From NCBI GenBank assembly GCA_031411095.1, contig JANOAK010000022.1, forward strand, positions 39,866-103,865: a stretch of DNA of 64,000 nucleotides. The letters are read 5' to 3'. The notes under the pieces were generated by a model. That model worked only from the letters and a program-made list of their open reading frames with translations, was not told the origin of the DNA and did no database searches. Shown here piece after piece: positions 11,495-56,346 of this stretch (the stretch's first letter is position 1; each line of letters starts with the position of its first letter). This stretch comes from Flavobacteriales bacterium. GTDB lineage: Bacteria; Bacteroidota; Bacteroidia; Flavobacteriales_F; PHOS-HE28. Made by a program: the position numbers and the translations under genes.

Positions 11495-11676
11495 CCGGGC
11501 CGCGCGAACTTGCTCGCGAAAGGACCGGGAACAAAAGATCCAGGCGCGCAGCGCCAGGGATCCTCGTGGATGAAGTTCCCCCCCATATGGAAAGCCCGTC
11601 CCTTGCTCAGCCAAAGCGGCTACGCGCTTGCGCGCCATAGCGCTTCAGCGCGCGGAGGCGCGAAGGCGCAGTCGGG

Positions 11677-11741
11677 CGATCCAGTCACTCCGACCAGTAA
11701 CGAGGATCCCGCCGGAAGGCGGGATCTTTTGTTTCCGGACC
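11677..11741 (+). repeat. direct repeat: duplicated 3' end of tRNA-Pro plus terminator (att-like scar)
   Basis: ATCCAGTCAC(T)CCGACCAGTAACGAGGATCCCGCCGGAAGGCGGGATCTTTTGTTTCCGG nearly identical to 11437-11497. Not a complete tRNA. Confidence 0.7.
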
Positions 11742-19249: not shown

Positions 19250-21613
19250 TCATGGGCTCGGCCCAACCGACTCGAACACCTGCACACTTGCCAGTATCCG
19301 GTTGATATCCCCGAGTACCGGAGGCTTCACCAAATGGTGGTCGAAACCGGCTTCCTGCGACCGCCGCTTGTCCTCATCCTGGCCCCAGCCCGTAAGGGCG
19401 ATCAACACCATCCCCGGGCCCCATGCTTCGCTGCGCAGCCGCCGGGCCACTTCGTAACCGTTCATGTTGGGCATACCGATATCCAGCAATACGATCCCGG
19501 GCCTTACGGCGGCGGCCACCGCCAACGCCTGCGCACCATCGTGCGCTTCGTGGACCACATGACCTTGCGCTTTCATCAGCATGGCCAGCGATGTGGCGCC
19601 ATCCACATTGTCATCCACGATCAGCAGCGTGTGCTTCGGCACCTTCGCGAGGGGGCGCTGCGAGGGAAGGGTACGCTCCTCCGGCACTTCGCACAAGGGT
19701 ATCCGCAGGGTGAACGTGCAGCCCTTGTTGCGGCCTTCGCTCACCACGTCCACGGAACCACCATGCATTTCGGCGAGGTTCTTCGTAAGCGAGAGGCCGA
19801 TGCCCAAGCCGCTGGTGTTGCGCTCCAAGGACGTATCGGCCTGCCCGAACAATTCGAAGATCTTCCCCTTCTCATCGGGCTCCAGACCTATACCTGTATC
19901 ACGCACGTGGATGCACGCATGGCCTTCTTCCGCGCTTAAGGTCAATGCGATGCTGCCGTGCGAGGGCGTGAACTTGCTCGCGTTGTTCAAGAGGTTGCCG
20001 ATGGCCTGCACCAACCGTGTTCCGTCACCATGTACATGGAGCGGTGCGGACGGTAGTGAGATGTTGAACACCTGTTGCGCGCTCTCCATCTGCGGCCTTA
20101 TGCTCTCCGCGGCTTGATGGATCAACGGGGCAAGCTCCACGACCGCTTTGCGCAACACGATCTTTCCGTGGCTTATACGGCTCACATCCAACAGATCATC
20201 CACCAAGCGGATCAACTGTCGCATCTGCCGCTTCATCATCGCGTACACCGTGGCCTTTTCGGGGTCAGCGTCCTCGGCCAATAGCTCCAGCCCGTTGTTG
20301 ATGGGAGCGAGCGGGTTGCGCAGTTCGTGGGCCAGCGTGGCCAGGAATTCATCCTTTCGCCGATCGGTTTCGATAAGGGACCTTTCCACACGCTTCTGCT
20401 CGGTGATGTCCACCTGAGTGCCCCAGGCGCGCAGGAACAGGCCGTCCTCTACGATGCCCACCAGGTTGTTGCTGAAGTAGAGGGTGTTCCCCTGCTTGTC
20501 CCGCTCCTCGCTTTCCCCGGCCTGCAACGCGTAGCCACCCGCCATAAAGGCACGGAGGTAAGCTTCGTTCTCCGGGTTGCGGGGCACGAGATCGCCGAAC
20601 CGGGCACCCACCAACTCGCTGCCCTGCGTGAAGCCGTAGATGCCGGCCATGGCATCATTGCATTCCGCCATGTAGGCATGCGCGTACACCCAGTCCAATG
20701 CGGCGTTCTCCGGCAGGTCAATAGGCATGGGCTGTGCAAGTTCGCAGCGCCAGATGCCTTCAGAACTGTTCCGGATGAATGCTTGGTACCGCTGTTCGGA
20801 AGCGTGCACCGCCTGTTCGCTTTCCCGCCGCAGGCGTTCATGCTCCCGCACGGCCTGGGCCAGCCACCACAGCACCACGAGCAACAACACGATCTCGAAC
20901 ACGGTGCGCAACACCGCACCGAATCTGGGATCATAATAGCCGGCCATTTCCCCCAGCTCGCGAAGCATGCTGAACACGATCGGCAGCAGCACCAAGACCG
21001 GTAGTGCGCGCCGGACCATTGCACCGGTGGCGCTCATTTCCAACAGCGTGCGGATGGGATCCTCTTCGGGCAAGCCCGCCATGAGGCCCAAGCCCAGAAG
21101 CATGAAGCAGATGGACGTGTTGAGGGCGATGGTGGATATGGTCGGGAGGAGGTAGAAATGGTGCGCCTGGAACAAATAACCCAACACCGAAAGGGAGGAG
21201 ATCCCGATGCAGAGGCCGGCCCCCACCACCGCCGGTGTGCGCCACGCTCTCCCGAAGGTGGAAAGGATGAGCGCCGCATTGATGATCATGAACATGATGC
21301 TTGCAGGCGGACCCATGCGGCTGGGCGCGTTGGCACCCCGCTGCCCCCAATCAGCGGTCACGAACAACTCATCGATGCCCAGATCCACCTCGAACAGGTG
21401 CTCGCACGCGGTGGCGGCACCGATACAGCCGGCCACCGCAGCACAAAGACGTGCGCCGCTGATGTGCGGCCCGTTCCGCTGCCACAAGGCAGCACCGGAC
21501 AGCACCAGGCCCAGGCCCGTGTTGAAGAACATGGATACACCCACATTGGGCCAGTCGGTGAGCCATGGTATGCCCAGCAACCAGCCCGACATCGTACTGG
21601 CGCCCATGATCAT
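19250..21613 (-). CDS. hybrid sensor histidine kinase with N-terminal multi-TM sensor domain (TM-PAS-HisKA-HATPase-REC), paralog of 17063-19060
   Basis: Same H-box, ATPase and REC motifs. About 8 predicted TM helices N-terminally. The annotated GTG start at 21745 overlaps a degenerate LuxR-HTH remnant, so ATG at 21613 (MIMGAST...) is preferred. True start uncertain. Confidence 0.8.
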   Translation of the reverse strand: MIMGASTMSGWLLGIPWLTDWPNVGVSMFFNTGLGLVLSGAALWQRNGPHISGARLCAAVAGCIGAATACEHLFEVDLGIDELFVTADWGQRGANAPSRMGPPASIMFMIINAALILSTFGRAWRTPAVVGAGLCIGISSLSVLGYLFQAHHFYLLPTISTIALNTSICFMLLGLGLMAGLPEEDPIRTLLEMSATGAMVRRALPVLVLLPIVFSMLRELGEMAGYYDPRFGAVLRTVFEIVLLLVVLWWLAQAVREHERLRRESEQAVHASEQRYQAFIRNSSEGIWRCELAQPMPIDLPENAALDWVYAHAYMAECNDAMAGIYGFTQGSELVGARFGDLVPRNPENEAYLRAFMAGGYALQAGESEERDKQGNTLYFSNNLVGIVEDGLFLRAWGTQVDITEQKRVERSLIETDRRKDEFLATLAHELRNPLAPINNGLELLAEDADPEKATVYAMMKRQMRQLIRLVDDLLDVSRISHGKIVLRKAVVELAPLIHQAAESIRPQMESAQQVFNISLPSAPLHVHGDGTRLVQAIGNLLNNASKFTPSHGSIALTLSAEEGHACIHVRDTGIGLEPDEKGKIFELFGQADTSLERNTSGLGIGLSLTKNLAEMHGGSVDVVSEGRNKGCTFTLRIPLCEVPEERTLPSQRPLAKVPKHTLLIVDDNVDGATSLAMLMKAQGHVVHEAHDGAQALAVAAAVRPGIVLLDIGMPNMNGYEVARRLRSEAWGPGMVLIALTGWGQDEDKRRSQEAGFDHHLVKPPVLGDINRILASVQVFESVGPSP

Positions 21614-21704
21614 GACGATCAACGCGGCCGCACGGGGTATCCATTGGGCCAGGTGGGATGGCGAGATCAATCGACAGGGCGTCTTTTGGTCTAGCGAATA
21701 TAAT

Positions 21705-21810
21705 CGCGCGCACCGCGCGAACGTGTACCGGAAATGGGTGTGCACACCCGGCTCGAACTGCTATACAAGGCCGTGGAATTGGGCGTGGTGGCCTGCCAGT
21801 GTGGTGGACA
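21705..21810 (+). pseudogene. degenerate, frameshifted copy of LuxR-HTH coding fragment
   Basis: CGCGCGAACGTGTACCGGAAATGGGTGTGCACACCCGGCTCGAACTGCTATACAAGGCCGTGGAATTGGGCGTGGTGGCCTGCC is ~85% identical to 16868-16960. Missing one G, which breaks the frame. Confidence 0.45.
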
Positions 21811-21939
21811 CCGGGGTAGGGACGATCGGCAGCAGACAGGGGTACGACCGGAGTTGTGAAAACCCCGCCAGGGCCTGGGGCAACTACCTACCGTATTCGC
21901 GAGGCTCCGCGCTCTGGCGGAGCCGAAGCGATCGTTCAT

Positions 21940-22330
21940 TCACGGTGTCACTTAAGGACCAAGGCCAAAGCCGCGCCTGCGGCCACTTAAAAAGCTTCGA
22001 GGCTCAAAAGCTTAAAGGCCCTCAGCCAGCGCAGCCACTCTGTCACCTGAGCTCGAGGCTCGAGGCCAACGCAGTGCCACCGGCAACTGAAAAAGCTTCG
22101 AGGCTCAAAAGCCAAAAGGCATAAAGCCAGCGCAGCCACTGTGACACCTGAGCCTGAAGTCTGAGGCCAACGCCGAGCCAGCGGAAACTGAAAAAGCTCG
22201 TGGCCCAAAGGCTCAAAGGCCTTCAGCCAGCGCAGCCACTGTGTCACCTGTGCTCGAGGCTCGAAGCCATCGCAATCTTCGAGGCTCAGAGGCTCAAAAG
22301 GCCCAAGCCAGCGCAGCCACGGGTCACCTA
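21940..22330. repeat. block of degenerate ~100-bp tandem repeats (AAAAGCTTCGAGGCTCAAAAGC...CAGCCAGCGCAGCCACTGTG...)
   Basis: 3-4 imperfect units seen directly. No credible ORF. Shares short blocks (TTAAGTGGCCGCAGGC, AGGCATAAAG, CCAAAGGCC) with the repeat block at 29190-29470. Confidence 0.6.
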
Positions 22331-22500
22331 TATGTGTCGTCCTGAAAAAGGATGACCAGTTGTGTCAACCTTGGGCAAGATAAGACACCTACTTTAACAG
22401 TGAATTTTTGTTTTGCCGCAGGCTGAGTTGTTCCGGGAGGCCATGGGCAGGAGCCTGTTGGCTTGCACTAAGGATTTGGCCTTCCGGATCAACTCATTCA
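22331..22500 (+). promoter_or_regulatory. putative CRISPR leader (AT-rich)
   Basis: Locally AT-rich (…TTTAACAGTGAATTTTTGTTTTGCC…). Immediately 5' of the first repeat in the inferred direction of array transcription. Confidence 0.4.
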
Positions 22501-23325
22501 GCTGTGATCTGATACCGAGTCGCGTTCTTTGAGAGGGCCTCATGGGTTGTAGCGTTGCTTACAGTGCTGTGATCTGATACCGAGTCGCGTTCTTTGAGAG
22601 GAACGACGCCGACAAGGCCCAACGTCAGCAGGCTGTGATCTGATACCGAGTCGCGTTCTTTGAGAGGCTCGCGCCAGTCGTCGAGCTTCTTCTGGATGCT
22701 GTGATCTGATACCGAGTCGCGTTCTTTGAGAGGTCTACTTCGCTTGCGCCCTTGGCGGGCTTGGCTGTGATCTGATACCGAGTCGCGTTCTTTGAGAGGA
22801 TGCGTTGGTGGCTTGCCCCGTCAAGGCCGGCTGTGATCTGATACCGAGTCGCGTTCTTTGAGAGGCTGCGTGCGTTACGATGCTCACCTTGTTGTGCTGT
22901 GATCTGATACCGAGTCGCGTTCTTTGAGAGGCCTTGTGCCGTTTCAACACGCCGATCACAGCTGTGATCTGATACCGAGTCGCGTTCTTTGAGAGGGGAA
23001 CCGAAGACCGGCACCACCCGAGTAGGGCTGTGATCTGATACCGAGTCGCGTTCTTTGAGAGGCTCGTCCATCAGAATGCCGCTGATGCGGAGCTGTGATC
23101 TGATACCGAGTCGCGTTCTTTGAGAGGGCACCAGCGGAACGCTACAGCTGGCCAGCGGCTGTGATCTGATACCGAGTCGCGTTCTTTGAGAGGATTGCCC
23201 GTACCCTGAGTACGACCGCGACAGCTGTGATCTGATACCGAGTCGCGTTCTTTGAGAGGACCACACACACCGTGAACACAGGCTACCTAGCTGTGATCTG
23301 ATACCGAGTCGCGTTCTTTGAGAGG
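22501..23325 (+). CRISPR. CRISPR array, 13 identical 36-bp repeats GCTGTGATCTGATACCGAGTCGCGTTCTTTGAGAGG, 12 spacers of 29-30 bp
   Basis: Repeats counted by hand. Starts: 22501, 22566, 22632, 22698, 22764, 22830, 22896, 22961, 23027, 23092, 23158, 23224, 23290. Strand is the inferred transcription direction. Confidence 0.97.
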
Positions 23326-23387
23326 AGCACAGGAACGCACTTCTTGTGCTTCAGGCAGTTGTAATGGCACTCGGTGGGAAGAATATC

Positions 23388-23414
23388 GCTGTGGGACCCC
23401 TCGGGTCCCACAGC
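23388..23414. terminator. 12-bp-stem hairpin GCTGTGGGACCC-ctc-GGGTCCCACAGC between cas2 stop and array
   Basis: Seen directly. Likely terminator for the cas9-cas1-cas2 transcript (minus strand) and insulator from array read-through. Confidence 0.5.
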
Positions 23415-23434
23415 GGCTTCCCGAATTACCAGCC

Positions 23435-23794
23435 CTAGAAAAGCTCCAGCTGGCTCGGGGCAGGAGCGAGGGCTTCTCGTACCCGACCCAGTATGTTGAT
23501 CATCCCGCTGTATTGCTTGTCGGTGATCTGGAGGATTGTCACTTGACCTTCCTTGGGAACGAACTTCTGCACGCGTTTGATGTGGACCAGCATGCTTTCG
23601 CGACTGGCACAATGCCGGGTGTACACGCTGAACTGGAGCATGTTGAACCCATCGGCCATGATGTGCTTGCGGAAGTGCGTGTAAATGTGGCGGTATTCCC
23701 GTGTGCTCGTAGGCAGATCGAAGAAAACGAAGAGCCACATGATCCGATACGCGTTCAGGCAATAGTGCGTGTTGCGCCCTTTGTGTGTGCCCAT
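23435..23794 (-). CDS. cas2: CRISPR-associated endoribonuclease Cas2 (type II)
   Basis: 119 aa. Bacteroidota II-C Cas2 signature ...YRIMWLFVFFDLPT...FRKHIMADGFNMLQFSVYTRHCASRE... Confidence 0.9.
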   Translation of the reverse strand: MGTHKGRNTHYCLNAYRIMWLFVFFDLPTSTREYRHIYTHFRKHIMADGFNMLQFSVYTRHCASRESMLVHIKRVQKFVPKEGQVTILQITDKQYSGMINILGRVREALAPAPSQLELF

Positions 23795-23798
23795 GGGT

Positions 23799-24692
23799 TC
23801 ATCGGAGTACAGGATAGTTCAATTTGCGACCCTCCTTCTCGAAACAACCCACCAGGCTTTGCGCGGTGCGGTGCAGTGCTACCATCATGGGGCCTTTCTT
23901 TCCGTCCTGTTTTACGTCGGCCAGCACCGTGCCGATCAGTTGGGCTTTCGCACGTTTGTCCAACTCATCAATGCCAAGTTGTAGTAGTTCCACCACCTCA
24001 GCATCGATGTATGGTCGGTATGGCTCCATAAGGTCGTCCGCTAAGCAGAAAGCGTTGTATTTATTGCTATGGTGAATGCCCAATGTGGGCAACAATCCGG
24101 CGGCCACTATTGCCCGCGCAGTAGCGGCACGGAGTACCGAATACCCATAATTCAAAGCGGCATTTGGCCAGGCACCTTCGCGCTCGCGACGGAATTCGTG
24201 CAGGAACAATTGTCCCCAATAGGCTTTGGCCGCGCGCGCCTCGTGGTTCTCGCTATCACCACTTTTCACATCACTGGCCATTTGGCGCAGGGCTTGGCCG
24301 TCCTTGCCCAGCGTATCCAACATACCGGCCTGGTTCAGGATCTTGGCTTTTACGGTTTGCTGCCAGAGCTGTTTGGTCAAGGGCAGGCTGGCTTCGATCT
24401 GCTTCTTGAAGCGGTGGTGCTGAAGCACATTGCCACTAAGCGGAAGGAGCAGGCCAGCAGGGTGGTAATCAGCGCCACAGAACACGACGGCCACGTTGTG
24501 CGCCATCAGTTCCTGCATGGCGGCGTGGGTGTAGGTAAGCTGTGGGTGCTCCAGCATCAGCACCGCCGTGTCCTCAATGGGGCGGTTGATGATCTCGCCT
24601 GTGTCTTTGTTGGTGATGACCAACTGGCTCAGCCTTACCGAGAGGTGGTAAGGCTGGCTGAAATGGAGGATGCGTCCGACCATAGTTTGCAC
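23799..24692 (-). CDS. cas1: CRISPR-associated endonuclease Cas1 (type II)
   Basis: 297 aa. Cas1 fold motifs (NYGYSVLRA, LGIHHSNKYNAFCLADDLMEPYRP). Ends 4 bp before the cas2 start. Confidence 0.95.
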   Translation of the reverse strand: MQTMVGRILHFSQPYHLSVRLSQLVITNKDTGEIINRPIEDTAVLMLEHPQLTYTHAAMQELMAHNVAVVFCGADYHPAGLLLPLSGNVLQHHRFKKQIEASLPLTKQLWQQTVKAKILNQAGMLDTLGKDGQALRQMASDVKSGDSENHEARAAKAYWGQLFLHEFRREREGAWPNAALNYGYSVLRAATARAIVAAGLLPTLGIHHSNKYNAFCLADDLMEPYRPYIDAEVVELLQLGIDELDKRAKAQLIGTVLADVKQDGKKGPMMVALHRTAQSLVGCFEKEGRKLNYPVLR

Positions 24693-24743
24693 TTCTACGG
24701 AGAAGCGCTTGCCAAGGATCGGGCCAAGTGAGGTGGCTGCCTT

Positions 24744-27700
24744 CTACGCCATTAGGAAGGCCTTGCTGGGTAAGGGTTCCAGTTCAATGTCGATTCCATC
24801 AATAAGCATCTTTAGCGCATTGATGTTCATACGCAACCATCCCAAGGGAGCGTCGAGCCGCCACACTTCTATGAATTCGATCTCCGTGTCGCTACGGGAA
24901 TCGAGAACGTTCAAGAGATTGATGCGGCCATCACCCTCAAAGTAGCGGATGACAAACGTCCGCTTGTTCATTTCGACCGGATCGTCCCAATGGATCTCAT
25001 CAGATGACTCATTATATAGCACGACCAATTGCCCAGAGGTAAGAACGAGGCGCTTTCCATTGCGCTCCATCAACTTGAATGCAGTGCGTTTCGGATCAGG
25101 ATGGAGTAGCGGGATCGCACCGGCCATGGAGGATCTGCCACGTTTCCCGTGCATGGCCTGTACCACCTCGAACAAGCTGAAATTGTAGTGGGTTCGCTTG
25201 CCCTTGTCGGTTTCATAAAGCGCCATAACGGGGGCCTCTTCATTGGCTACCCATAGATGGTGTTTGTGCGGTGCATCTGGCCGCTGATCCCTGTGCTCCT
25301 TTATTGCCACAGGGTTCTTTACCCTGTCGAACACGCGGGCATGTTTCACGATACGAACGACCGGCTCACCATTGAATTTCCCCTTCCACTTCAGCCCACG
25401 GTCACTCTCAATAGCCACAGGATCTGCTTCAAGCAACGCTTCTCGCAATTTGGGGTCCACCACCTTGGCCATGTCCGCCTTGCTCATGCCCACTATCGGT
25501 TTCCGCAGCACCACATGTTCCTCGAATTCCTCAGTGCCAGGTTTATTCAGCTTGATCTTGCCATAGTACGTGTCCTTGTGCAGGGATCCGCGCACGCTGT
25601 CGCCTTGCGCCTTCACCTCCACCACACGCCCATCTTTCAGTTTCACCTTTCGATCATATACGCTCGTGCGCCCAATGCTCGGCTTGCGCACATGGTACAC
25701 TAGAGCCGAATCGCGCAGGTTGCGCATGTCCGTTCCAAAGGTCTTCCATGGGTGTTCGAAGCTCGCGGTCACATCCTTTTCGTCATGCTCTTCATAGTGG
25801 TGCGCTAGTGCATTGAACTCGGCCTTGTCCACGGCGGCGCAAACAGCAGCATCCACAGCGTGGTGCGTGTGCTTGCTCCGGTCTTTCGCATGCACGAAGC
25901 TCTCACCCATCCATTCTTTTCGGAAAGCGCTAAGTGCTTCTGGCTTCAGGCAGTCTACCCGGTTGAAGTAACTGTTCATGTACGCCCTTGCCAGCTTGGT
26001 GATCTGCCCGGTGGCTACCAATTGGCGGTTCATGAATCCCGGTTTGATCTCTTCGGCAGTCAAGTGTTCGTACTTGGTGCGCCAATAGTCGCGGAAGAAT
26101 TGGTTGAACCAACGGTCCTGAATCGCCTTATCCTTTGCCTCTTTCGTAGCCGCGCTCTTGCTGCTCATCTTGCAGGCATAGACGGTACGGTCGTACTTGT
26201 CATAGAGCTTCTTGATCACTTCGGCTGTTTCCTTGATGCCGGGCAACATCTTGCCTTGCACCATGACTTCTTTATCGTAGTTCGGCAGCCTGGCGGGCAT
26301 GTGTTCTTTCTTGATCGTCCGGTTGTAGGTCGTGTCGCACAGCATTTTATTGGCCATGCTGTTATCCACGGTCTTGCTGCGCGGCCAGGTGTGCTCGATC
26401 TCCACACTGCCATTGAACAGGTCCGCAACTCCGAACTCCTTACCGGTGTATATGCACATCACTCTTCCGAAGATCTCCCGTGTCTCCTCAAGCAGCCACA
26501 TACGTTCGATGTCCTCGTCGCTGGGGTTGGTGTGTTTGCCTACGGTGGCGAAGTACTCCTTCACTGCAGTTTCTGCGCTCACGTTCTTCTTGCGCATCAC
26601 CGTTTGGTAGCGTTCCCATGCCTTGCGCTTGTTCGCGCTGTCGAGGTCGCGCGCCATTTCGATGTTCACCTGTGTTTTCCGGTCGATCAATCCGGCCTTG
26701 ATCATCTTGTTGATCAACATACGCAGGCTGTGCAGCGAGCGGTACACCATCGGGTTCTTAAGGCCGGGCGTCTTCGGGTCGCCGAGCTTGTCGCCGTGGT
26801 CCTTGTAGATGTTGATGGCGCTATGGTGGTAAAGCTTGTCCACATCTTTGGGCAGCAGACCGAAGTTGTCCATCAACCATTGTTTCACGCGATCGTCACG
26901 CCTAAGCAGCGGTTCGAACTGTACCTTCTGATGGTTCTCGATATGATGGAGGAATAAGGCCTTTACCTTTTCCCTTAAGGCGCTAATCACAACAGTGCTC
27001 TTGCTTCGCTTCTGTTCCAGGGAAAGCGTTTCGTCGATCCCTTTTCGTAGTTGTTCATCCCATGCACTGTTCCAGAATCCCTTGCGCCCACCTTCTTCGC
27101 CAAGCGAATCGCGATAGTGGCGGATGAGCCCATTGAACAGGAGCATTTCGACATTGTAGTCGCGGTGGTCCGCAATGCGCTCACGAATACCATTGCGTAT
27201 GGCTTCGCGATCCGATGCGCTCATGGCTGCCCAGCGATCATCCACCTTGGGAAGGAGGTGGCCACTTGGTCCTTTGACCATCTCCGTGACGAACTTTCCA
27301 TCCTTTCCATCCACCTTATGTACCACCTTGAAAATGGAAGGTAGGTTTGCCAGCATCACCGCATCGTGGTAGCCCATTGGGAGCTGCCCATCGATTCCAT
27401 ACATGAGCGGAATGATTCGACCCAGCGCACGGGTGCTGAGGTTATGATAGCCTTGCTTAGTATCGAACTTCTCCAGCAGCTTCAACTGCTCTTCATCGAA
27501 GTTCCATTGGGTAATAGCGTATTCCTTCAAGTCCCGCTTGCCACCAGTATCCTGCCCCTTGGCTTTGCGTTCGCTCAGGTCTGCCCAATCAAAAGCGTTA
27601 TAGATCACGCTGTATCGGTCCACCCACAGCTTGCGCTCATGGGCCTTGTCGTCTTCCATGGCACCAAAGGCATCCACGAGGGTCATTACATCCACCTTCC

Positions 27701-28751
27701 ACAAATCGGCGAGGTGAGCAATAGTTCGCGCACCGGGTAGCTTGTCTTTCTTCCTGTAGTTGAAGCTCCCTTCGCTGTCCCTCATCTTTAAGGCCTTCAG
27801 CACATCCTCGAAATCGAAGGAGGGTTTGCTGCGGCGAAAGAACTGGGGGAGGATCCTTTGCCGTTCTTCCGCATTCAACGGGCGATCATCCAAACGGATG
27901 TTGTTCACGGTCTGCAACACGCCGAACAGCTCCGCTTCAATGCTGCTGATGGGCGCGCGCCGCTTGCCCGGCTCCAGTGTGCAACGACCTACATCGCTCT
28001 TCTTGCCTTTGAGCGGGCGCTGGAAAAAGAGGTCGCCGGTCTTGCCATCGCCGAGTTCTGCTCTCAGTGCGTCGGTGAGAATAGGGTGGTGGTTCTTCTG
28101 TACATCCCATAGCTGGTTGAACTCATCCACCAGATCGCTGCGCTTGAAGTAACGCTTGCGAATGGCAGTGTGCGTCTTGCTTAGTTCGTGTCCAGCCTTG
28201 CCAAGTGTGCCATGATCGTTGATGAGCTTGAGCGTAGCGTTGTAGCCCGCTATGCCCTTTTCCTCAAGTCCTTCATGGAACGACTCCTGTTCACCATCGC
28301 CGCCTTTGCGGTTGCTCTGGAAACCACGCCGTTGGGATAGATGGTAGAGTATGCGGCCCAACTCCATCGGTGTCAACTTCTCTTCAAGCCCTTTCGCGCG
28401 CAACTCGTATGGGTTCAACTTGAACCACGTGATAAAGCCATCCTCCAAGGGATAGCGGTCTTTCACTTTCCAATTCTTCAAACCTTCCTCGCTCAGCGGG
28501 CACATGCCGTTCTTGATCAGGTGCAACAGCAAGCGTTGCTTGCGCATTCTCCGACGCATGTATAGCCTGCGCGTGGCGCGGCTGCGCGTGCGTTGTGCAG
28601 TGGCAGGTGTCTCACTGCCCTTCACGCGCGCAACGCCTTCGGGGAAGATGACCGAACCCGCAGCCGCGAGCTTCTTCACGCCATCCTCCTGCTCAATGAT
28701 CGCCCAACCAATGCTGTTGGTGCCGAGGTCCAGACCCAATGTCTTTTTCAT
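24744..28751 (-). CDS. cas9: type II-C Cas9 (1335 aa)
   Basis: RuvC-I MKKTLGLDLGTNSIGWAI. Arg-rich bridge helix QRTRSRATRRLYMRRRMRKQR. HNH SVEIEHTWPRSKTVDNSMANKML. RuvC-III HTHHAVDAAV. No csn2 or cas4, so type II-C. Confidence 0.97.
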   Translation of the reverse strand: MKKTLGLDLGTNSIGWAIIEQEDGVKKLAAAGSVIFPEGVARVKGSETPATAQRTRSRATRRLYMRRRMRKQRLLLHLIKNGMCPLSEEGLKNWKVKDRYPLEDGFITWFKLNPYELRAKGLEEKLTPMELGRILYHLSQRRGFQSNRKGGDGEQESFHEGLEEKGIAGYNATLKLINDHGTLGKAGHELSKTHTAIRKRYFKRSDLVDEFNQLWDVQKNHHPILTDALRAELGDGKTGDLFFQRPLKGKKSDVGRCTLEPGKRRAPISSIEAELFGVLQTVNNIRLDDRPLNAEERQRILPQFFRRSKPSFDFEDVLKALKMRDSEGSFNYRKKDKLPGARTIAHLADLWKVDVMTLVDAFGAMEDDKAHERKLWVDRYSVIYNAFDWADLSERKAKGQDTGGKRDLKEYAITQWNFDEEQLKLLEKFDTKQGYHNLSTRALGRIIPLMYGIDGQLPMGYHDAVMLANLPSIFKVVHKVDGKDGKFVTEMVKGPSGHLLPKVDDRWAAMSASDREAIRNGIRERIADHRDYNVEMLLFNGLIRHYRDSLGEEGGRKGFWNSAWDEQLRKGIDETLSLEQKRSKSTVVISALREKVKALFLHHIENHQKVQFEPLLRRDDRVKQWLMDNFGLLPKDVDKLYHHSAINIYKDHGDKLGDPKTPGLKNPMVYRSLHSLRMLINKMIKAGLIDRKTQVNIEMARDLDSANKRKAWERYQTVMRKKNVSAETAVKEYFATVGKHTNPSDEDIERMWLLEETREIFGRVMCIYTGKEFGVADLFNGSVEIEHTWPRSKTVDNSMANKMLCDTTYNRTIKKEHMPARLPNYDKEVMVQGKMLPGIKETAEVIKKLYDKYDRTVYACKMSSKSAATKEAKDKAIQDRWFNQFFRDYWRTKYEHLTAEEIKPGFMNRQLVATGQITKLARAYMNSYFNRVDCLKPEALSAFRKEWMGESFVHAKDRSKHTHHAVDAAVCAAVDKAEFNALAHHYEEHDEKDVTASFEHPWKTFGTDMRNLRDSALVYHVRKPSIGRTSVYDRKVKLKDGRVVEVKAQGDSVRGSLHKDTYYGKIKLNKPGTEEFEEHVVLRKPIVGMSKADMAKVVDPKLREALLEADPVAIESDRGLKWKGKFNGEPVVRIVKHARVFDRVKNPVAIKEHRDQRPDAPHKHHLWVANEEAPVMALYETDKGKRTHYNFSLFEVVQAMHGKRGRSSMAGAIPLLHPDPKRTAFKLMERNGKRLVLTSGQLVVLYNESSDEIHWDDPVEMNKRTFVIRYFEGDGRINLLNVLDSRSDTEIEFIEVWRLDAPLGWLRMNINALKMLIDGIDIELEPLPSKAFLMA

Positions 28752-28796
28752 GTTGCGAGAATTTCCGTCGTTGTTGCGTTGGTAATGTAGAAACTC

Positions 28797-28878
28797 CTTT
28801 ACTTCGTGGTATCAGATCACAGTAAGGCTATAAGCCGAAGTGAAAACTTGGCCCCTGCTTCGGTGGGGGCCTTTTCAT
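28797..28878 (+). ncRNA. predicted tracrRNA (anti-repeat + nexus-like element + terminator hairpin)
   Basis: 28808-28822 GGTATCAGATCACAG is the exact reverse complement of repeat nt 2-16. Followed by TAAGGCTATAAGCC (compare SpCas9 nexus AAGGCUAGUCCG). Then GGCCCC-tgcttcggtg-GGGGCC plus TTTTCATTT (28851-28880). Ends approximate. Confidence 0.6.
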
Positions 28879-29189
28879 TTCCTGTGGCATCGTCTCCGCC
28901 ACGGGATCTTGCACCCTGGAACCATCATTTTCGCCAGTATTCAGCTCGCCCCGCAATGCAAGCGAAGCGCGAACTGGCGACCACAAAGGCACTCTGCCTC
29001 CGTTCACCGGCAAACAAACCACCCACACGCCCTGTCGCGAAGTACGGCTTGAGATGGACCTGGAACCGGCAGCCTCCAAGCACTGAATGCACCGAAAGTC
29101 TTTCCCCGAAGTGCGGCCGAAAGCGCGCATGCAGCCAGCACCCCCCCCACCACAGAGAAGTTCAACACCAACGGTTTCGCCGAATTCAG

Positions 29190-29470
29190 GTGAAGGTGTT
29201 CGCCTAGTGCCAGCCGTTACAGACTGCCAGCAGGCGCTGCCCGGCCAAAAGCCCCATGCCACCTCCGCTGCGCGGAACAAGAGCCATTAAGTGGCCGCAG
29301 GCCAGCCAGCCCAAAGGCCTTGGGGCCGAATTCAGCAGGGTTAGAACTGGAAGCTATCGGCAAGCGCTGCCCGACCAAAAGGCCAAGGGACCTTCCGCTT
29401 CGCGGCCTTCAGCTCAGAAGTGCCGCAGGCAAAGGCCACTGGCCAAGAGCCTCCAGGCATAAAGCGTTAA
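29190..29470. repeat. dispersed short repeat family B (two diverged units)
   Basis: 29375-29433 CCAAAAGGCCAAGGGACCTTCCGCTTCGCGGCCTTCAGCTCAGAAGTGCCGCAGGCAAA is near-identical to 36331-36389. An upstream diverged unit at ~29226-29290. Confidence 0.6.
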
Positions 29471-29609
29471 GTGCCGACCGCCTACGCCTCACCTTTTCTA
29501 CGCTACGGCGAGCGAGGCACGGCTTCGGCGGATAATACAGGCAACACCGTGGCACCGCCAGCTTTTTTGGCCTTCAGGCTTAGCGGCTCAGAAGTGCGCG
29601 TGGGGCCGA

Positions 29610-30070
29610 GGCCACACATGCATACAGGGTGCTGGGTCCACGTGCACTGGGAACGATCGCTATACATGGGCACCCATGCGGCTGGGATGTGGCAACACGC
29701 TGCAAGCGTGGTCGCACACGGTTCACATGTGGCCGCACGCACAACGCATGTGCAGGCACACTTCCCGAAAGCATCCGCACCTTTCACCAATGTGCTCGCA
29801 CGTACCGCGCATGTGGGCGAACACGCACAGAACGTTTCGGCACCTTCCTCAAACGTGCTCGCACACCGCTGAACAGCTGTGCCACATGTCGCTCCTGCGG
29901 GGGAACATTCGCCGAAGGTGGTCGTACCTACCTGAAAAGCGGTTCAACATCTTGCTGATGTGGGGGAGCGTTCGCCGAACGTGGTCGCACCTGCCTGAAA
30001 TGCGGTTCCACCTGTTGCTCATGCGGGGGAACATTCGCCGAAGGTGGTGGCACAATTCCATGCGGTGTAA
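29610..30070. repeat. 63-bp-period tandem minisatellite (~7 units, two sub-families)
   Basis: Example units: GCACGCACAACGCATGTGCAGGCACACTTCCCGAAAGCATCCGCACCTTTCACCAATGTGCTC and GCACCTGCCTGAAATGCGGTTCCACCTGTTGCTCATGCGGGGGAACATTCGCCGAAGGTGGTG. Units aligned by hand. Confidence 0.7.
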
Positions 30071-30258
30071 GGACCGGGAACGATAGCATAAGCCCTTGCT
30101 GTAAGCCAGCTATACCCGGCCTTTCGGTGGTTGTGTACCAACGATCAGGCGCCGCCCAGGAAGGGCCGTCTAGGGAGAATTCCCGATATCCTGGAGCAGC
30201 GGGCGTGGGTACAAAGGCCACAAACCAGGCGGTAACCCCGCCATAAAACAACAGCCAA

Positions 30259-30873
30259 ATGGCAACAGTGAAAATAGGCGCAGACCGCCTCTCGGCCACG
30301 GAGCTTGTGGCAAAAGCCCAGGGTATCCACGATAAAGTGGTGGGCAATGCAGCGTTCCCCGACCCCACTCCCAAGGCGGCGGACTTCCAAGTGCTCATCG
30401 ACAAGTTGGCGGCGGCCAACGCAGCGGTGAACGTGAACGGCGGCAAGGCCGAACACCTGGCGAAGCGCACGGCGAAAGTGGCCATGCTTGCGGCGCTGAA
30501 AGGCTGGGCCGGGTATGTGCAGGCGGCTTCGGGCAGCGATGAGGAGGTGATCCTCAGCAGCGGTTTCGACGTGGTGCAGCGCGGTGGCCCCATCGGCGAG
30601 CTGAACCCGCCGAAGAACCTGCAGTCCAAGTTCACCAGCATGCTGGGGCGTGCCACCTTCAAGTGGGACCGCGAGGCAGGCGCCGACATGCACCACGTGT
30701 ACATGAGCGCCACCAGTGCCCCCTTCAACTGGGAGCTCATCGGGGTCACCACCAAGAGCCGCTTCAATGCGGACAACCTGGAGCCCGCCCGCATGTACTG
30801 GTTCGCCGTATCGGCCATTGGCGCCGCTGGCGAAACCAGCAAGAGCGAGCCGCTGATGGCCCGCGCCGCGTAA
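30259..30873 (+). CDS. hypothetical protein with C-terminal fibronectin-III-like domain
   Basis: 204-aa ORF. Good codon usage. FN3-like pattern (...KWDREAGADMHHVYMS...YWFAVSAIGAAGETSKS...). Confidence 0.5.
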   Translation: MATVKIGADRLSATELVAKAQGIHDKVVGNAAFPDPTPKAADFQVLIDKLAAANAAVNVNGGKAEHLAKRTAKVAMLAALKGWAGYVQAASGSDEEVILSSGFDVVQRGGPIGELNPPKNLQSKFTSMLGRATFKWDREAGADMHHVYMSATSAPFNWELIGVTTKSRFNADNLEPARMYWFAVSAIGAAGETSKSEPLMARAA

Positions 30874-31117
30874 GTCCAGCATCCATACTACGTCCTGCTC
30901 ACCGCCCTCCGTGCCGCCGCATGGGGGGCGGTGGCGTTTTGGGGGGCGCTGTTGATGTGGCCACCCATGGTAAGACCGGATAGATCCGATCTGCTCCTGT
31001 TCGCGGATCGCGAACGCAACGCCGGTATCGCTTGAAGTACCGGTTGACCCGCGTGGCCACACCGGAGGTTGCCCATGAATAGGAAGCCCAGCGCCCCCAC
31101 CACTGCCAAGAAGTTCA

Positions 31118-31210
31118 ACACCTACCGCTCCGCCTCCGGCGGACAGGCCTGCCATCGGCAGGCAGGCCTGCCTACCTCTTGTAGGTTCGCGGACCACAAG
31201 GAGATGCTGA
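31118..31210. repeat. dispersed intergenic repeat family C copy (AACACCTACCGCTCCGCCTCCGGCGG...GGCAGGCCTGCC...GGTTCGCGGACCACAAGGAG)
   Basis: 5' block shared with 36270-36300. 3' 20-mer GGTTCGCGGACCACAAGGAG shared exactly with 34647-34666. Contains the 12-bp palindrome GGCAGGCCTGCC. Confidence 0.55.
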
Positions 31211-31288
31211 TAGGCCAGTTAGCGGGTGTCGACGGTGAGTTTGTCCGTGCACGTTTAACGGTCCACCCGGAGGCAGGGAGTCGTGCGA

Positions 31289-32605
31289 TCACAACCTCTT
31301 CTTTTCGCTCACATCACCATTGATCCAAAGCATCTTCAAGCTGAAGTAGGTACCTGAGGCATCCGGCTCGAACCGCACCTGCACGTTCTCGTCCAGAATG
31401 AACATGTCCGGTCCCATGGGTTTGAGTTCGGTGATGTAGCCGCCCCGTTCGGCGTTCCTGCACTGCAAGTGCCCGTTCTGCACGTAGAAGTCCAGTCCAC
31501 CTTCGTACACGCCGGCGAAGGCGTGCAGCGCGGCAGGAAGGGGCGGTGGCTCCAATTCCGCGCGGCAGGCGTTCAAGTGCCACTGTAGCCTGTTCCGGTC
31601 TTGTTCCTCCGTCGCTTGTTCAAGCAACCGGGTGAAGATGCTGCATCGTGCTTGGGCCAGGGCCTCTTCTGAGGCAATGGGGACATCAGGCCGAACGCCG
31701 ATGCCTTCCCAGTCCACATTTTCCGGATGGCGCGCCACGGGAATGATGGCCACGAAGCCCTGCCCGATGTTGAACGCACCCCTGGGGTGCGCACCACCAC
31801 CGGTGGTATCGCCGACAATGATGGCCCGCTGCGCATGCTGCAGGCCCATGATGAAGTCCTCGGCCGCGGAGAACGTATAGTTACTGGAGAGGATGTAGAC
31901 CGGCATATTCAGCTTGAAGTCCGTGCGCTTCGGATCCGTGTATCGCACTAGGGTGTCACGACCACCTTGGATGATGTCGTTCATGTGCGTCCGTTCGGCA
32001 AAGAAGTAGTCCTGCATATGGAGCACCATGTCCGGTGATCCCCCGCCGTTGTAGCGGAGGTCGATGATGAGGGCGTCCGTGTTGCCGGTGAATAGGAAAG
32101 CGGCCGCTACTGTAGGAGCGGCTTCTGCGACCTGTCCGGCGAATCCATCCCAGCGGATGTAGCCGATATTGCCCGGCAGCACCTCGGTCTTGACGAACGC
32201 GAAATTCCGTTGCCGGGCGGCCTGGATGTCCTGTTCACGGTCCTGGTGTATCTCCGTGTCCGTTCTCCGCAGATCCAGTTGCGCAACAAGACCCGGGTCG
32301 TAGGCCACGTTCAAGTGACCATCCGGGTGTACGTGCTGAAGATCATCGGCGAGCATACGGGCGAGTTCGCGCCTGTTCTGGGCTGTTGCATACTTCTTCT
32401 TGCGTTGTTGCATCCGCAGGTCGTCGGCCATGTGCCCGGCGTGGTCGGGAAAGATGTAGATACGCTGCAAGGCGGCACTGAGACTGTCGATCAGCAGCCC
32501 CACTTGCTGGGTGTTCAGCTTTTCTCCTGGGTCTTCGCCCATGCCGGACAGGTCGATCTGGGCATGGCAGGGAAGGAACGCGAACACGATCCCAGCGAGT
32601 GCCAT
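31289..32605 (-). CDS. S41-family C-terminal processing peptidase
   Basis: IIDLRYNGGGSPDMV motif. Signal peptide from MALAGIVFAFLPCHAQ. Upstream ORF extension to 32872 is considered spurious. Start uncertain. Confidence 0.75.
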   Translation of the reverse strand: MALAGIVFAFLPCHAQIDLSGMGEDPGEKLNTQQVGLLIDSLSAALQRIYIFPDHAGHMADDLRMQQRKKKYATAQNRRELARMLADDLQHVHPDGHLNVAYDPGLVAQLDLRRTDTEIHQDREQDIQAARQRNFAFVKTEVLPGNIGYIRWDGFAGQVAEAAPTVAAAFLFTGNTDALIIDLRYNGGGSPDMVLHMQDYFFAERTHMNDIIQGGRDTLVRYTDPKRTDFKLNMPVYILSSNYTFSAAEDFIMGLQHAQRAIIVGDTTGGGAHPRGAFNIGQGFVAIIPVARHPENVDWEGIGVRPDVPIASEEALAQARCSIFTRLLEQATEEQDRNRLQWHLNACRAELEPPPLPAALHAFAGVYEGGLDFYVQNGHLQCRNAERGGYITELKPMGPDMFILDENVQVRFEPDASGTYFSLKMLWINGDVSEKKRL

Positions 32606-54717: not shown

Positions 54718-56346
54718 TCAGGCCGAAGTGAATGTTCGTGTCTCCACAGCGACCGGCAGTTGGTAGGCACGGGCCAAGGCGTGGAATTCCTGTACCTGTG
54801 CGGCCACCCAACCTTCTTCATGTGCCGCCTCCGCAGCGATCACACGCGCCACCTTATCACTGCACGCGATGGCGGCCGCAGCATCAACAAAGAGGAGCCG
54901 CACCCTGCGGGCGAGGACATCCTCCACCGTGATGGCCATTTCATGCCGGACCGCATGGATCACCTCTCCCACGGTGTAGGGGTGATCGGGATGGATCCGT
55001 TCACGTGTCCGCGGATCGTCCAGATGCACCGCATGGATGACATCGGCCTCGATCCCGTATAAGCCCAAGCGGTCGCATGTGTGCACGTGCTCGGCGGCCA
55101 CGTTGCCATGGATGGGCAGCGTTGTGGTGATGCAGGGGCGGGCGGGGAGGTTGACCAGCGCAATGGCCCGATCCACCACGTCCTCGGCCATTTTTCGGTA
55201 GGTGGTCCATTTGCCGCCGATGATGGAGATGAGACCTGAAGGGGAGACAAGGAGCTTGTGGCTGCGCGAAACGTCCTTGGTGCTCCGTCGCCCGTGGCCT
55301 GGTGCCGCCAAGGGGCGCTGACCGGCATACATGCACAGCACATCAGCGCGTGTAGGCTTGCGGGTGAGGTAACCGGATGCCGTGTTCAGCACGAAGTCGA
55401 TCTCTTCCTCGAGTGGGCGGGGTTCGAGGCTGGGTTCGTCCACGGGAGTATCGGTGGTACCCACCACCACATGCTCGTGCCATGGAATGGCGAAGAGCAC
55501 CCGGCCATCGGACGTGCGGGGGATCATCAGGGCATCGTTACCGGGAAGGAAGGATCGGTGCAGCACCAGGTGTATGCCCTGGCTGGGTACGATGTGGTCC
55601 TTGGTATCCGGGCCGTCGAGTGCGAGGATCGTGTTGGTGAGCACGCCCGTGGCGTTCACCACCACCTTTCCCAACACTTCGTGGGAAGCACCCGTGATCG
55701 CATCTTCCACGTGCACCCCGGTGATCGTACCGCCGAGGTCCTTACGGAACGACTTCACCGACATGTGGTTCAACACGCAGGCCCCGTGGTCAACGGCTGT
55801 TCGCGCCAGGTCGATCGCTAGGCGGGCGTCATCGAATTGTCCATCGTGGTACAACACACCACCGCAAAGGCCATCCGCACGCACGTTCACCAACTGGGCC
55901 AGCGCTTCGGTGCGGTCCAAAAGGCGTGTTCCACCGAAGCTCAGGCGGCCGGCCATCAGATCATAGAGACCGAGCCCCACGCGGTAGTACCACATCTCCC
56001 ACCGATGATAGCAAGGGATGACGAAGCGCTGATCATGCACCAGGTGACGCGCGTTCTGCGCGAGGTACCCACGTTCGCGCAGGGCCTCGCGCACCAGACC
56101 GAGGTCGCCTTGCGCGAGGTAACGAACACCACCATGGACCAGTTTGGTGCTGCGGCTGGAGGTGCCCTTTGCGAAGTCATGCGCCTCGAACAGGACGGTG
56201 CTGAAGCCGCGGGAAGCGGCATCCACCGCGATGCCCAGTCCGCTGGCACCACCACCGATCACGATCACATCCCACACATGGTCCTGGTGGAGTAGTTGGT
56301 CGAGCGCTGCCTGCCTGTTCATGTCACCTGGTCCTGTCGCTTCCAC
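54718..56346 (-). CDS. glpD: FAD-dependent glycerol-3-phosphate dehydrogenase
   Basis: FAD motif DVIVIGGGASGLGIAVDAASRG. GlpD C-terminal domain. Start possibly at 56322 (MNRQAAL). Confidence 0.9.
   Translation of the reverse strand: MEATGPGDMNRQAALDQLLHQDHVWDVIVIGGGASGLGIAVDAASRGFSTVLFEAHDFAKGTSSRSTKLVHGGVRYLAQGDLGLVREALRERGYLAQNARHLVHDQRFVIPCYHRWEMWYYRVGLGLYDLMAGRLSFGGTRLLDRTEALAQLVNVRADGLCGGVLYHDGQFDDARLAIDLARTAVDHGACVLNHMSVKSFRKDLGGTITGVHVEDAITGASHEVLGKVVVNATGVLTNTILALDGPDTKDHIVPSQGIHLVLHRSFLPGNDALMIPRTSDGRVLFAIPWHEHVVVGTTDTPVDEPSLEPRPLEEEIDFVLNTASGYLTRKPTRADVLCMYAGQRPLAAPGHGRRSTKDVSRSHKLLVSPSGLISIIGGKWTTYRKMAEDVVDRAIALVNLPARPCITTTLPIHGNVAAEHVHTCDRLGLYGIEADVIHAVHLDDPRTRERIHPDHPYTVGEVIHAVRHEMAITVEDVLARRVRLLFVDAAAAIACSDKVARVIAAEAAHEEGWVAAQVQEFHALARAYQLPVAVETRTFTSA

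Follow-up and report, generated by a model that had tools for sequence, protein, structure and literature searches.

A predicted tracrRNA gene divergent from cas9 in a type II-C-like CRISPR-Cas9 locus of an uncultured Flavobacteriales lineage

[quoted passage not shown] The sgRNAs of that survey follow one rule, in which 16 nucleotides (nt) of repeat are joined by GAAA to the anti-repeat and everything downstream of it, and they work in vitro (PMC7606464). With respect to gene arrangement, a tracrRNA upstream of cas9 and an array running opposite to the cas operon are both known, and the repeats of a Bacteroidetes subcluster reach up to 48 nt (Chylinski et al., 2013; PMC3737331). For the type II-C systems of Flavobacterium psychrophilum and F. 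columnare, TAnnTTTG and repeat-encoded promoters have been proposed, while tracrRNA transcription and maturation are unresolved according to the authors (PMC10309648). Here we analyse a stretch of 64 kb from contig JANOAK010000022.1, referred to as the window, which derives from an uncultured, high-GC Flavobacteriales lineage. The sequence evidence indicates that the plus strand from about 28811 (or from as far upstream as about 28795) to about 28878 is very probably the tracrRNA gene of a type II-C-like CRISPR-Cas9 locus. The RNA belongs to a class that has already been described and that includes sgRNAs working in vitro, namely those of the systems known as Rsp, Jpa and Ghe.

An earlier note on this DNA had proposed a tracrRNA divergent from cas9 and composed of an anti-repeat, a nexus-like motif and a terminator. 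All three modules are present, although a further hairpin between the nexus and the terminator had been missed. The modules are as follows.

28808 to 28823, plus strand: anti-repeat, with 15 Watson-Crick pairs to repeat nt 2-16, plus U28823 against G1 (a G-U pair)
28824 to 28837, plus strand: nexus AAGGCUAUAAGCCG, with stem GGCU (28826-28829), loop AUA and AGCC (28833-28836)
28838 to 28849, plus strand: hairpin 2, AAGU-GAAA-ACUU, with compensatory changes in relatives; it forms in the sgRNA fold
28850 to 28880, plus strand: intrinsic terminator, with stem GGCCCCUGC (28850-28858), UUCG loop and GUGGGGGCC (28863-28871), then UUUUCAUUU (28872-28880)

The repeat reads GCTGTGATCTGATACCGAGTCGCGTTCTTTGAGAGG on the plus strand and is identical in 13 of 13 copies. 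As had been claimed, repeat nt 2-16 have their exact reverse complement, GGTATCAGATCACAG, at 28808-28822 on the plus strand; this anti-repeat lies upstream of cas9, on the opposite strand and 57 nt from the start codon. The nexus-like sequence TAAGGCTATAAGCC, located at 28823-28836, had been likened to the nexus of SpCas9. The two do share the motif AAGGC...GCCG, but the nexuses of St1Cas9, SaCas9 and Jpa are closer to that of the window. At 28850-28871 the hairpin GGCCCC-N10-GGGGCC is followed by TTTTCATTT, and a terminator scan flagged this site on the plus strand only, in agreement with the view that a GC-rich hairpin and a T-run form a terminator here. When 16 nt of repeat, a tetraloop and the sequence from the anti-repeat onward were fused in the sgRNA proposed previously, a design also used by Gasiunas et al. 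(2020), the RNA folded as intended into the four expected modules (-52.8 kcal/mol, z = -10.6).

A competing, better anti-repeat was sought within the 64-kb window and none was found. The anti-repeat is the sole copy outside the array with 0 mismatches, and a search allowing up to 3 mismatches returned the 13 array matches on the minus strand, the plus-strand site at 28808 and one other site, at 55952, with 3 mismatches. Shuffled sequence gave a mean of 1.3 matches at the same threshold and never reached 15. A search of the window for the complement of the 3' half of the repeat found none outside the array. An RNAduplex scan of the whole window with the repeat in both orientations was dropped, as random coding segments (-30 to -40 kcal/mol) outranked the true site; the scan is non-discriminating because the DNA is GC-rich.

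To place the element among its relatives, contigs with close relatives of the window's Cas9 were collected by exact-protein look-ups in the Logan, JGI and NCBI assemblies; scans of genomes and metagenomes held few of them. Cas9s 37-81% identical to that of the window occur mostly in metagenome assemblies. The same RNA is found in the same place in about 20 loci within this range of identity (individual loci are given L numbers below), although their flanks are unrelated, and the module is divergent from cas9 in every fetched contig of this range that reaches upstream of cas9. The consensus reads (A/G)TCA(G/A)(A/T)(T/C)CACAGTAAGGCT(T)ATA(A/T)GCCG(A/C/T)AG..., followed by a short hairpin, a GC-rich hairpin and a T-run, and the DNA past the T-run is unrelated between loci. 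Such a sharp boundary of conservation at the terminator points to a small RNA gene and is unlike a coding region or a cas9 promoter. A coding explanation was considered for the open reading frames (ORFs) at 28806-29207 (plus strand) and 28828-29280 (minus strand) and rejected, since these have no Pfam matches and conservation ends at the terminator.

The strongest single piece of evidence is the covariation of the anti-repeat with the repeat. Wherever the cognate repeat was found in a locus, the 12-nt anti-repeat core is its perfect complement, with 0 mismatches, in each of four versions.

Core AUCAGAUCACAG with repeat CUGUGAUCUGAU: the window, L083, L084, L164, L166, L170, L171, L173 and L178
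Core AUCAAUUCACAG with repeat CUGUGAAUUGAU: L179
Core GUCAAUUCACAG with repeat CUGUGAAUUGAC: L004
Core GUCAAUCCACAG with repeat CUGUGGAUUGAC: L177

Compensatory double substitutions are found at repeat nt 7, 8, 9 and 13, and this covariation argues that the anti-repeat and the repeat pair as RNA.

Conservation of the remaining modules was assessed at the level of structure. From 12 distinct close sequences, RNAalifold recovered the nexus and terminator stems. It also offered an alternative helix between UCAC of the anti-repeat and GUGA of hairpin 2, which we rejected because it is broken in 2 of the 12 sequences and incompatible with the crRNA-bound state (crRNA, CRISPR RNA); at most it might represent a fold of the free RNA. 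A U-G pair of the terminator is kept in all 12 sequences and a G-U pair in 11 of them. On the minus strand these would be C-A and A-C mismatches, which speaks for the plus strand, and the fold z-score is -3.3 for the plus strand against -1.0 for the minus strand. The 12-sequence alignment and a three-hairpin structure that we assigned to it were then used to build a covariance model, R1. At E <= 3e-4 this model detects the module in 40 loci, in nearly all of them on the strand opposite cas9 and 50-200 nt upstream of it. About 30 of the loci detected are more distant, and the matches include Bacteroidales, Spirochaetes, Pontiellaceae and Verrucomicrobiota loci with Cas9s only around 30% identical. 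Two distant loci (L011 832-921 and L012 603-692) have the module upstream of cas9 and co-directional with it. Three further close loci score 81-103 bits with R1, and overall the module was located upstream of cas9 in about 50 loci.

In the R1 alignment, paired cells make up 89% of the total and double changes occur in 14 of the 17 pairs; the observed values were not reached by any of 500 shuffles, and slid partners were 37-52% paired. The alignment was fitted to the model, which favours the structure, but compensatory changes are already visible in the unfitted sequences, both in hairpin 2 (AAGU/ACUU, UAGC/GCUG and AGUC/GACU) and in the terminator (GGCCCC/GGGGCC, GAGCCC/GGGCUC and GCGCCC/GGGCGC). 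The G-C pairs of the nexus are invariant in 40 of 40 family members, and its third pair shows four double changes. Hairpin 2 becomes UAGC-GUAA-GCUG in L175 and AGUC-GAAAU-GACU in L004 and L177, and its closing pair is GC (n = 16), UA (n = 16), AU (n = 4) or CG (n = 1). In the terminator stem, double changes across the family affect all pairs (9/9), with 94.5% of cells paired.

The proposal of a tracrRNA divergent from cas9 is thus borne out by conservation, covariation with the repeat, compensation in the stems, plus-strand G-U pairs and relatives with validated sgRNAs. The element has three of the attributes by which a tracrRNA is recognized, in that its anti-repeat is separate from the array and adjoins cas9, and a nexus, hairpins and a terminator follow on its 3' side. 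Some observations nevertheless weigh against this assignment. No Rfam family matches 20000-32000, even at E <= 10. To our knowledge, the Rfam tracrRNA model covers Streptococcus-like sequences only; the miss would lower only membership in that curated family, and we read it as a probable gap in the library. A sigma-70 promoter scan found no plus-strand promoter near the tracrRNA, a result that is expected for a host among the Bacteroidota and was set aside for that reason. Finally, a duplex of 13-17 base pairs (bp) is short for RNase III. Given this length, and the 20-24 bp of distant relatives, canonical co-processing by RNase III is uncertain.

The extent of the duplex bears on where the RNA begins. 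The core that is conserved throughout the clade of the window is AUCAGAUCACAGU (28811-28823), which pairs with repeat nt 1-13, so that the duplex is 13 bp in the clade and 16-17 bp at best in the window. Repeat nt 1-13 pair in all clade members, and comparison of the loci indicates that the three extra pairs of the window are locus-specific. They are formed by GGU at 28808-28810, which complements ACC at repeat nt 14-16; relatives have ACC, AUC, AGC or GGC at the position of GGU and keep ACC in the repeat despite the changed tracrRNA bases 5' of the core. The earlier note had also extended the duplex by G-U or partial pairing to repeat nt 1 and nt 17-19. These pairs are literally present (U28823-G1 and U28807-G17 as G-U pairs, then a G28806/A18 mismatch and C28805-G19), but the relatives lend no support to a functional role of the pairing at nt 17-19. 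Pairing between repeat nt 14-36 and the 23 nt that precede the core is no better in cognate combinations (-5.6 kcal/mol) than in non-cognate ones (-5.3 kcal/mol), repeat nt 17-23 are hypervariable, and loci with identical tracrRNA flanks differ there. Conserved pairing to nt 17-19 was therefore rejected, and the 16-17-bp stem is specific to the window. In distant family members the anti-repeat is 20-24 nt long, and the duplex consists of 8 bp followed, after a 2x2 internal loop, by an upper stem of 9-14 bp that covaries with the repeat.

Candidate promoter elements lie immediately upstream of the conserved core and in the spacer between the tracrRNA and cas9.

28799 to 28806, plus strand: candidate tracrRNA -7 box TTACTTCG, 4 of 6 positions of TAnnTTTG, with a predicted start at A28811
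28782 to 28789, minus strand: candidate cas9 -7 box TACATTAC, TAnnTTG(Y) in relatives, a block conserved in the cas9-tracrRNA spacer and read by eye against the consensus of PMC9723704

The Bacteroidetes sigmaA -7 consensus is TAnnTTTG, and it spans -12 to -5 in F. psychrophilum (PMC9723704). With the box at this spacing, transcription is predicted to start at A28811, precisely the position from which all relatives are complementary to the repeat. The box at this offset is TATATTTG in L175, L179 and L180 (6/6) and one of the 5/6 boxes TATATTCG, TATACTTG, TACTTTCG and TTACTTTG in L163, L170, L172, L173, L084 and L177. Its end always precedes the first paired base by 4 nt, or by 3 nt in the case of L175 and L179, and the predicted first base is a purine in all nine loci with 5-6 matches. 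In distant Bacteroidota relatives, whose anti-repeats are longer, a perfect TAnnTTTG lies immediately outside the anti-repeat, 25-48 nt upstream of the nexus.

The alternative that survives best accepts a real tracrRNA but would start it at about A28811 from the box at 28799-28806, leaving an anti-repeat of 13 nt (12 Watson-Crick pairs and one G-U pair) and turning GGU and the bases upstream of it into promoter DNA. It agrees with the restriction of clade-wide pairing to repeat nt 1-13, with the near-equal energies of the upstream flank on cognate and non-cognate repeats, and with an upstream box that is conserved while repeat nt 17-23 vary freely. The 5-6/6 boxes of the nine related loci, their Flavobacterium-like spacing and the purine at the predicted start point the same way. 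On the other hand, the box of the window itself agrees with the consensus at no more than 4 of 6 positions, GGU complements repeat nt 14-16 perfectly (although chance would provide this in 1 of 64 cases per locus), and the distant relatives clearly transcribe an anti-repeat of 20-24 nt from a box 25-48 nt upstream of the nexus. On balance, we consider that a start at A28811 has slightly less than an even chance of being correct, and the remainder falls to a start further upstream, as assumed previously. The specific start at 28797 in the earlier note was a guess without direct support, and the -7-like box predicts one near 28811 instead.

Far less probable is the idea that the conserved block is a regulatory DNA sequence or the 5' untranslated region of the divergent cas9, with no separate RNA gene. 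The cas9 start codon is indeed no more than about 130 nt away, and the conserved boxes at 28782-28806 resemble promoter elements; that at 28782-28789 is plausibly the cas9 promoter. Conservation, however, extends 70 nt beyond wherever a cas9 promoter could plausibly lie and stops exactly at the T-run, the stems carry compensatory changes and G-U pairs that form only on the strand opposite cas9, the 5' segment covaries with the CRISPR repeat, and the module of L011 and L012 is co-directional with cas9. We consider this explanation highly improbable. Equally hard to credit is a relic without present function, in which a stray inverted repeat fragment adjoins a chance hairpin: tracrRNAs have been proposed to derive from degenerated repeats (Chylinski et al., 2013; PMC3737331) and several related arrays have decayed to 1-3 repeats, but here the nexus, hairpin 2 and terminator are kept with compensatory changes across Cas9s 30-81% identical, the anti-repeat tracks changes of the repeat, and an intact array of 13 identical repeats accompanies full-length cas genes.

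The genes and the array that accompany the tracrRNA lie in the order tracrRNA, cas9, cas1, cas2, array.

24744 to 28751, minus strand: cas9, 1335 amino acids (aa), TIGR01865 (E = 1.5e-132), with HNH_4, Cas9_a and RuvC_III domains; divergent from the tracrRNA gene
23799 to 24692, minus strand: cas1 (type II, NMENI type), TIGR03639 (E = 2e-83)
23435 to 23794, minus strand: cas2, TIGR01573 (E = 1.9e-19)
22501 to 23326, plus strand: CRISPR array, 13 identical 36-nt repeats with 29-30-nt spacers

Cas9, Cas1 and Cas2 are intact and full length. Neither csn2 nor cas4 was detected among the ORFs scanned with Pfam and NCBIfam, and the flanking ORFs have no Cas-related Pfam matches. Since cas9, cas1 and cas2 alone were found among the scanned ORFs, the gene content is II-C-like; this set of three is the one that marks type II-C. 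The cluster to which the window's Cas9 belongs includes fragments annotated from a Flavobacteriales metagenome-assembled genome (MAG), and its closest genome-derived relatives also come from Flavobacteriales MAGs. The window's Cas9 is only about 30% identical to Rikenellaceae- and Alistipes-like Cas9s and at most about 30% identical, over the aligned parts, to characterised Cas9s. The nearest solved structures are those of Neisseria meningitidis Cas9s (E = 1e-33), mostly through the N-terminal 325 residues.

Several features of the neighbourhood differ between loci. Directly after the tracrRNA terminator, and on the same strand, a HIRAN-domain gene is found in L172 (39-569), L177 (5336-5863), L178 (5051-5560) and L179 (5332-5859), and the start ATGGACCGC... 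also follows the terminator in L169 and L084. The window has no HIRAN gene; 28880-30250, the 1.4 kb past the tracrRNA, contains no ORF with a Pfam match, and this unannotated stretch includes a 63-nt tandem repeat (2.9 copies, 80% matches) at 29869-30053. A solitary 12-13-nt anti-repeat core (ATCAGATCACAGC or the variant of the locus) is located just past cas9, between cas9 and cas1 and on the cas9 strand, in L169 (4321-4332), L179 (9958-9969) and L004 (8178-8189), and is preceded by a GC-rich hairpin in L169 and L179. On the other strand this core reads as an orphan 5' repeat fragment, from which a cr-like or regulatory RNA could arise; no such copy exists in the window. Toxin-antitoxin-like pairs also occur between cas9 and cas1, namely Xre/ParS-RES in L171 (4383-5306) and a HepT-like protein with a nucleotidyltransferase in L178 (9924-10454).

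The orientation of the tracrRNA bears on that of the array. We infer that the crRNA sense is the plus strand and that the array is transcribed towards cas2, convergent with the cas operon, because the strand of the anti-repeat fixes the orientation and because validated repeats begin GUUGUG in the orientation that matches the plus strand of the window. The earlier deduction of array direction from the order of the modules agrees with both lines of evidence and with the 43-repeat array of L178, in which decayed, irregular repeats are found at the cas2-proximal end, as fits a leader at the distal end. In the window the corresponding region would be as follows.

22330 to 22500, plus strand: putative leader at the cas2-distal end of the array, with a GC content of 0.535 against 0.60-0.63 in the flanks

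No conserved promoter emerged when the putative leader was compared with the array-distal flanks of L166 and L167, the alignment coordinates being poorly chosen. Just past the end of this region lies a 101-nt, AGGCY-rich tandem repeat (3.1 copies; 21962-22274), and AGGCT/AGGCC motifs also abound in the corresponding flank of L166 (about 11500-11720). Between the array and cas2, a 13-bp hairpin, CGCTGTGGGACCCCTCGGGTCCCACAGCG, at 23387-23415 begins like the repeat (GCTGTG); it is flagged as a minus-strand terminator after cas2 and could also stop plus-strand transcription of the array. In L171, L173, L175/L176 and L177, cas9, cas1, cas2 and the tracrRNA are intact and only 1-3 repeats, some of them mutated, follow cas2. 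Beyond them the contigs run into unrelated genes, and it appears that the arrays have collapsed while the tracrRNA has been maintained.

The 3' part of the repeat is of interest with respect to crRNA maturation. Although nt 24-32 do not pair with the tracrRNA, they are conserved as G[A/T]TCTTTGA in the window, L084, L166, L170, L171, L173 and L177-L179, and match TAnnTTTG at 5 of 6 positions in most relatives and at 4 of 6 in the window. This -7-like motif may provide every repeat with a crRNA promoter, or it may have a role for Cas1-Cas2. The first idea is suggested by analogy with N. meningitidis, for which repeat-embedded promoters are reported, and F. columnare, for which they are proposed, in the work cited by PMC10309648. 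One may speculate on the same analogy that, at the usual spacing, transcription from a box in the repeat would begin with the repeat's last base, at the repeat-spacer junction. A broader and more tentative proposal, to which we give rather less than an even chance, is that the clade has lost the upper stem of the duplex, that the -7 box starts the RNA at a minimal anti-repeat of 13 nt and that crRNAs are made in another way, possibly from the repeat box. If so, the clade would provide a natural counterpart to truncated guide scaffolds made by engineering; the 13-bp duplex would be a poor substrate for RNase III, and the 3' ends of the crRNAs would be trimmed by other nucleases.

Transcription of the window's tracrRNA, its exact 5' and 3' ends and the maturation of the crRNAs are predictions from sequence, from which the following mechanism may be proposed. 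The array would be transcribed on the plus strand towards cas2, and the 5' end of each repeat, GCUGUGAUCUGAU (with ACC here, if transcribed), would pair through its first 13-16 nt with the 5' anti-repeat of the tracrRNA. Cas9 would hold this duplex together with the nexus AAGGCUAUAAGCCG, the GAAA hairpin and the terminator hairpin, and in the resulting dual-RNA guide the spacer 5' of the repeat handle would direct DNA cleavage. As the class of tracrRNA is known and biochemically validated, the intrinsic surprise is low. With this assignment, annotation is complete for an intact Cas9 system of an uncultured Flavobacteriales lineage of high GC content, and a well-supported sgRNA scaffold becomes available for testing an uncharacterised Cas9 of 1335 aa. 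Moreover, the set of about 50 loci with covarying repeats and tracrRNAs defines which bases of the scaffold are constrained, and a lineage with a naturally very short guide duplex bears on crRNA maturation without a long RNase III substrate and on the trimming of scaffolds.

Comparison with known systems places the locus as follows. The type II-C systems of N. meningitidis (Nme) and Campylobacter jejuni resemble it in having a minimal cas9-cas1-cas2 set and an array transcribed against the direction of the cas operon (PMC3737331). The Cas9s of these two species are 250-350 aa shorter than that of the window, whose similarity to the Nme enzyme is weak. The Nme tracrRNA gene sits elsewhere in its locus. 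The systems of F. psychrophilum and F. columnare come from the same host order and share the order tracrRNA-cas9-cas1-cas2-array (PMC10309648). The window differs from them in its 36-nt repeats and in its Cas9 clade. These two Flavobacterium systems belong to the Bacteroidetes long-repeat group. At the level of the RNA, St1Cas9, SaCas9 and SpCas9 also have AAGGC...GCCG directly 3' of the anti-repeat. The nexuses of St1Cas9 (UAAGGCUUCAUGCCGAA, GAUAAGGCUUCAUGCCGAAAUCA and GAUAAGGCUUCAUGCCGAA) and SaCas9 (AAGGCAAAAUGCCG and ACAAGGCAAAAUGCCGUG) are close to that of the window, and that of SpCas9 (AAUAAGGCUAGUCCG) shows the weakest resemblance of the three (PMC8038530, Table 1). Unlike the window, however, all three are type II-A, with other downstream hairpins and Cas9s of other clades.

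The class to which the window's RNA belongs is represented by Rsp (Rikenellaceae sp., clade VIII), Jpa (Jejuia pallidilutea, clade VIII) and Ghe (a hot-spring metagenome, clade IX). Like the window, these have a 5' anti-repeat, a nexus of the form (U/C)AAGGC-N-GCCG, a short hairpin and a terminator, and G(U/C)UGUG opens their repeats when these are read in the same orientation. Their nexuses are nearly identical in sequence to that of the window; Jpa shares AAGGCUAUAAGCCG with it exactly (Jpa RNA ...CAAUUCACAACAAGGCUAUAAGCCGUAGAGAAAAUUCUAGCCCAUUGC...), and Ghe has AAGGCUAUAUGCCGAAG (Ghe RNA ...AUCACAAUAAGGCUAUAUGCCGAAGGAUGUAAAUCCU...). Consistent with this relationship, R1, built from the clade of the window, detects loci with GUUGUGGUUUGAU repeats that resemble those of Rsp and Ghe. 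The homologous modules of clades VIII and IX, that is an anti-repeat ending CACA(A/G), U/C-AAGGC-loop-GCCG, a hairpin and a terminator, are all found in the window, whereas the long duplex with an internal loop and an upper stem is absent from its clade. The RNAs of Rsp, Jpa and Ghe pair through 8 bp, an internal loop and an upper stem of 10-14 bp, and in the clade of the window their place is taken by one continuous stem of 13 bp.

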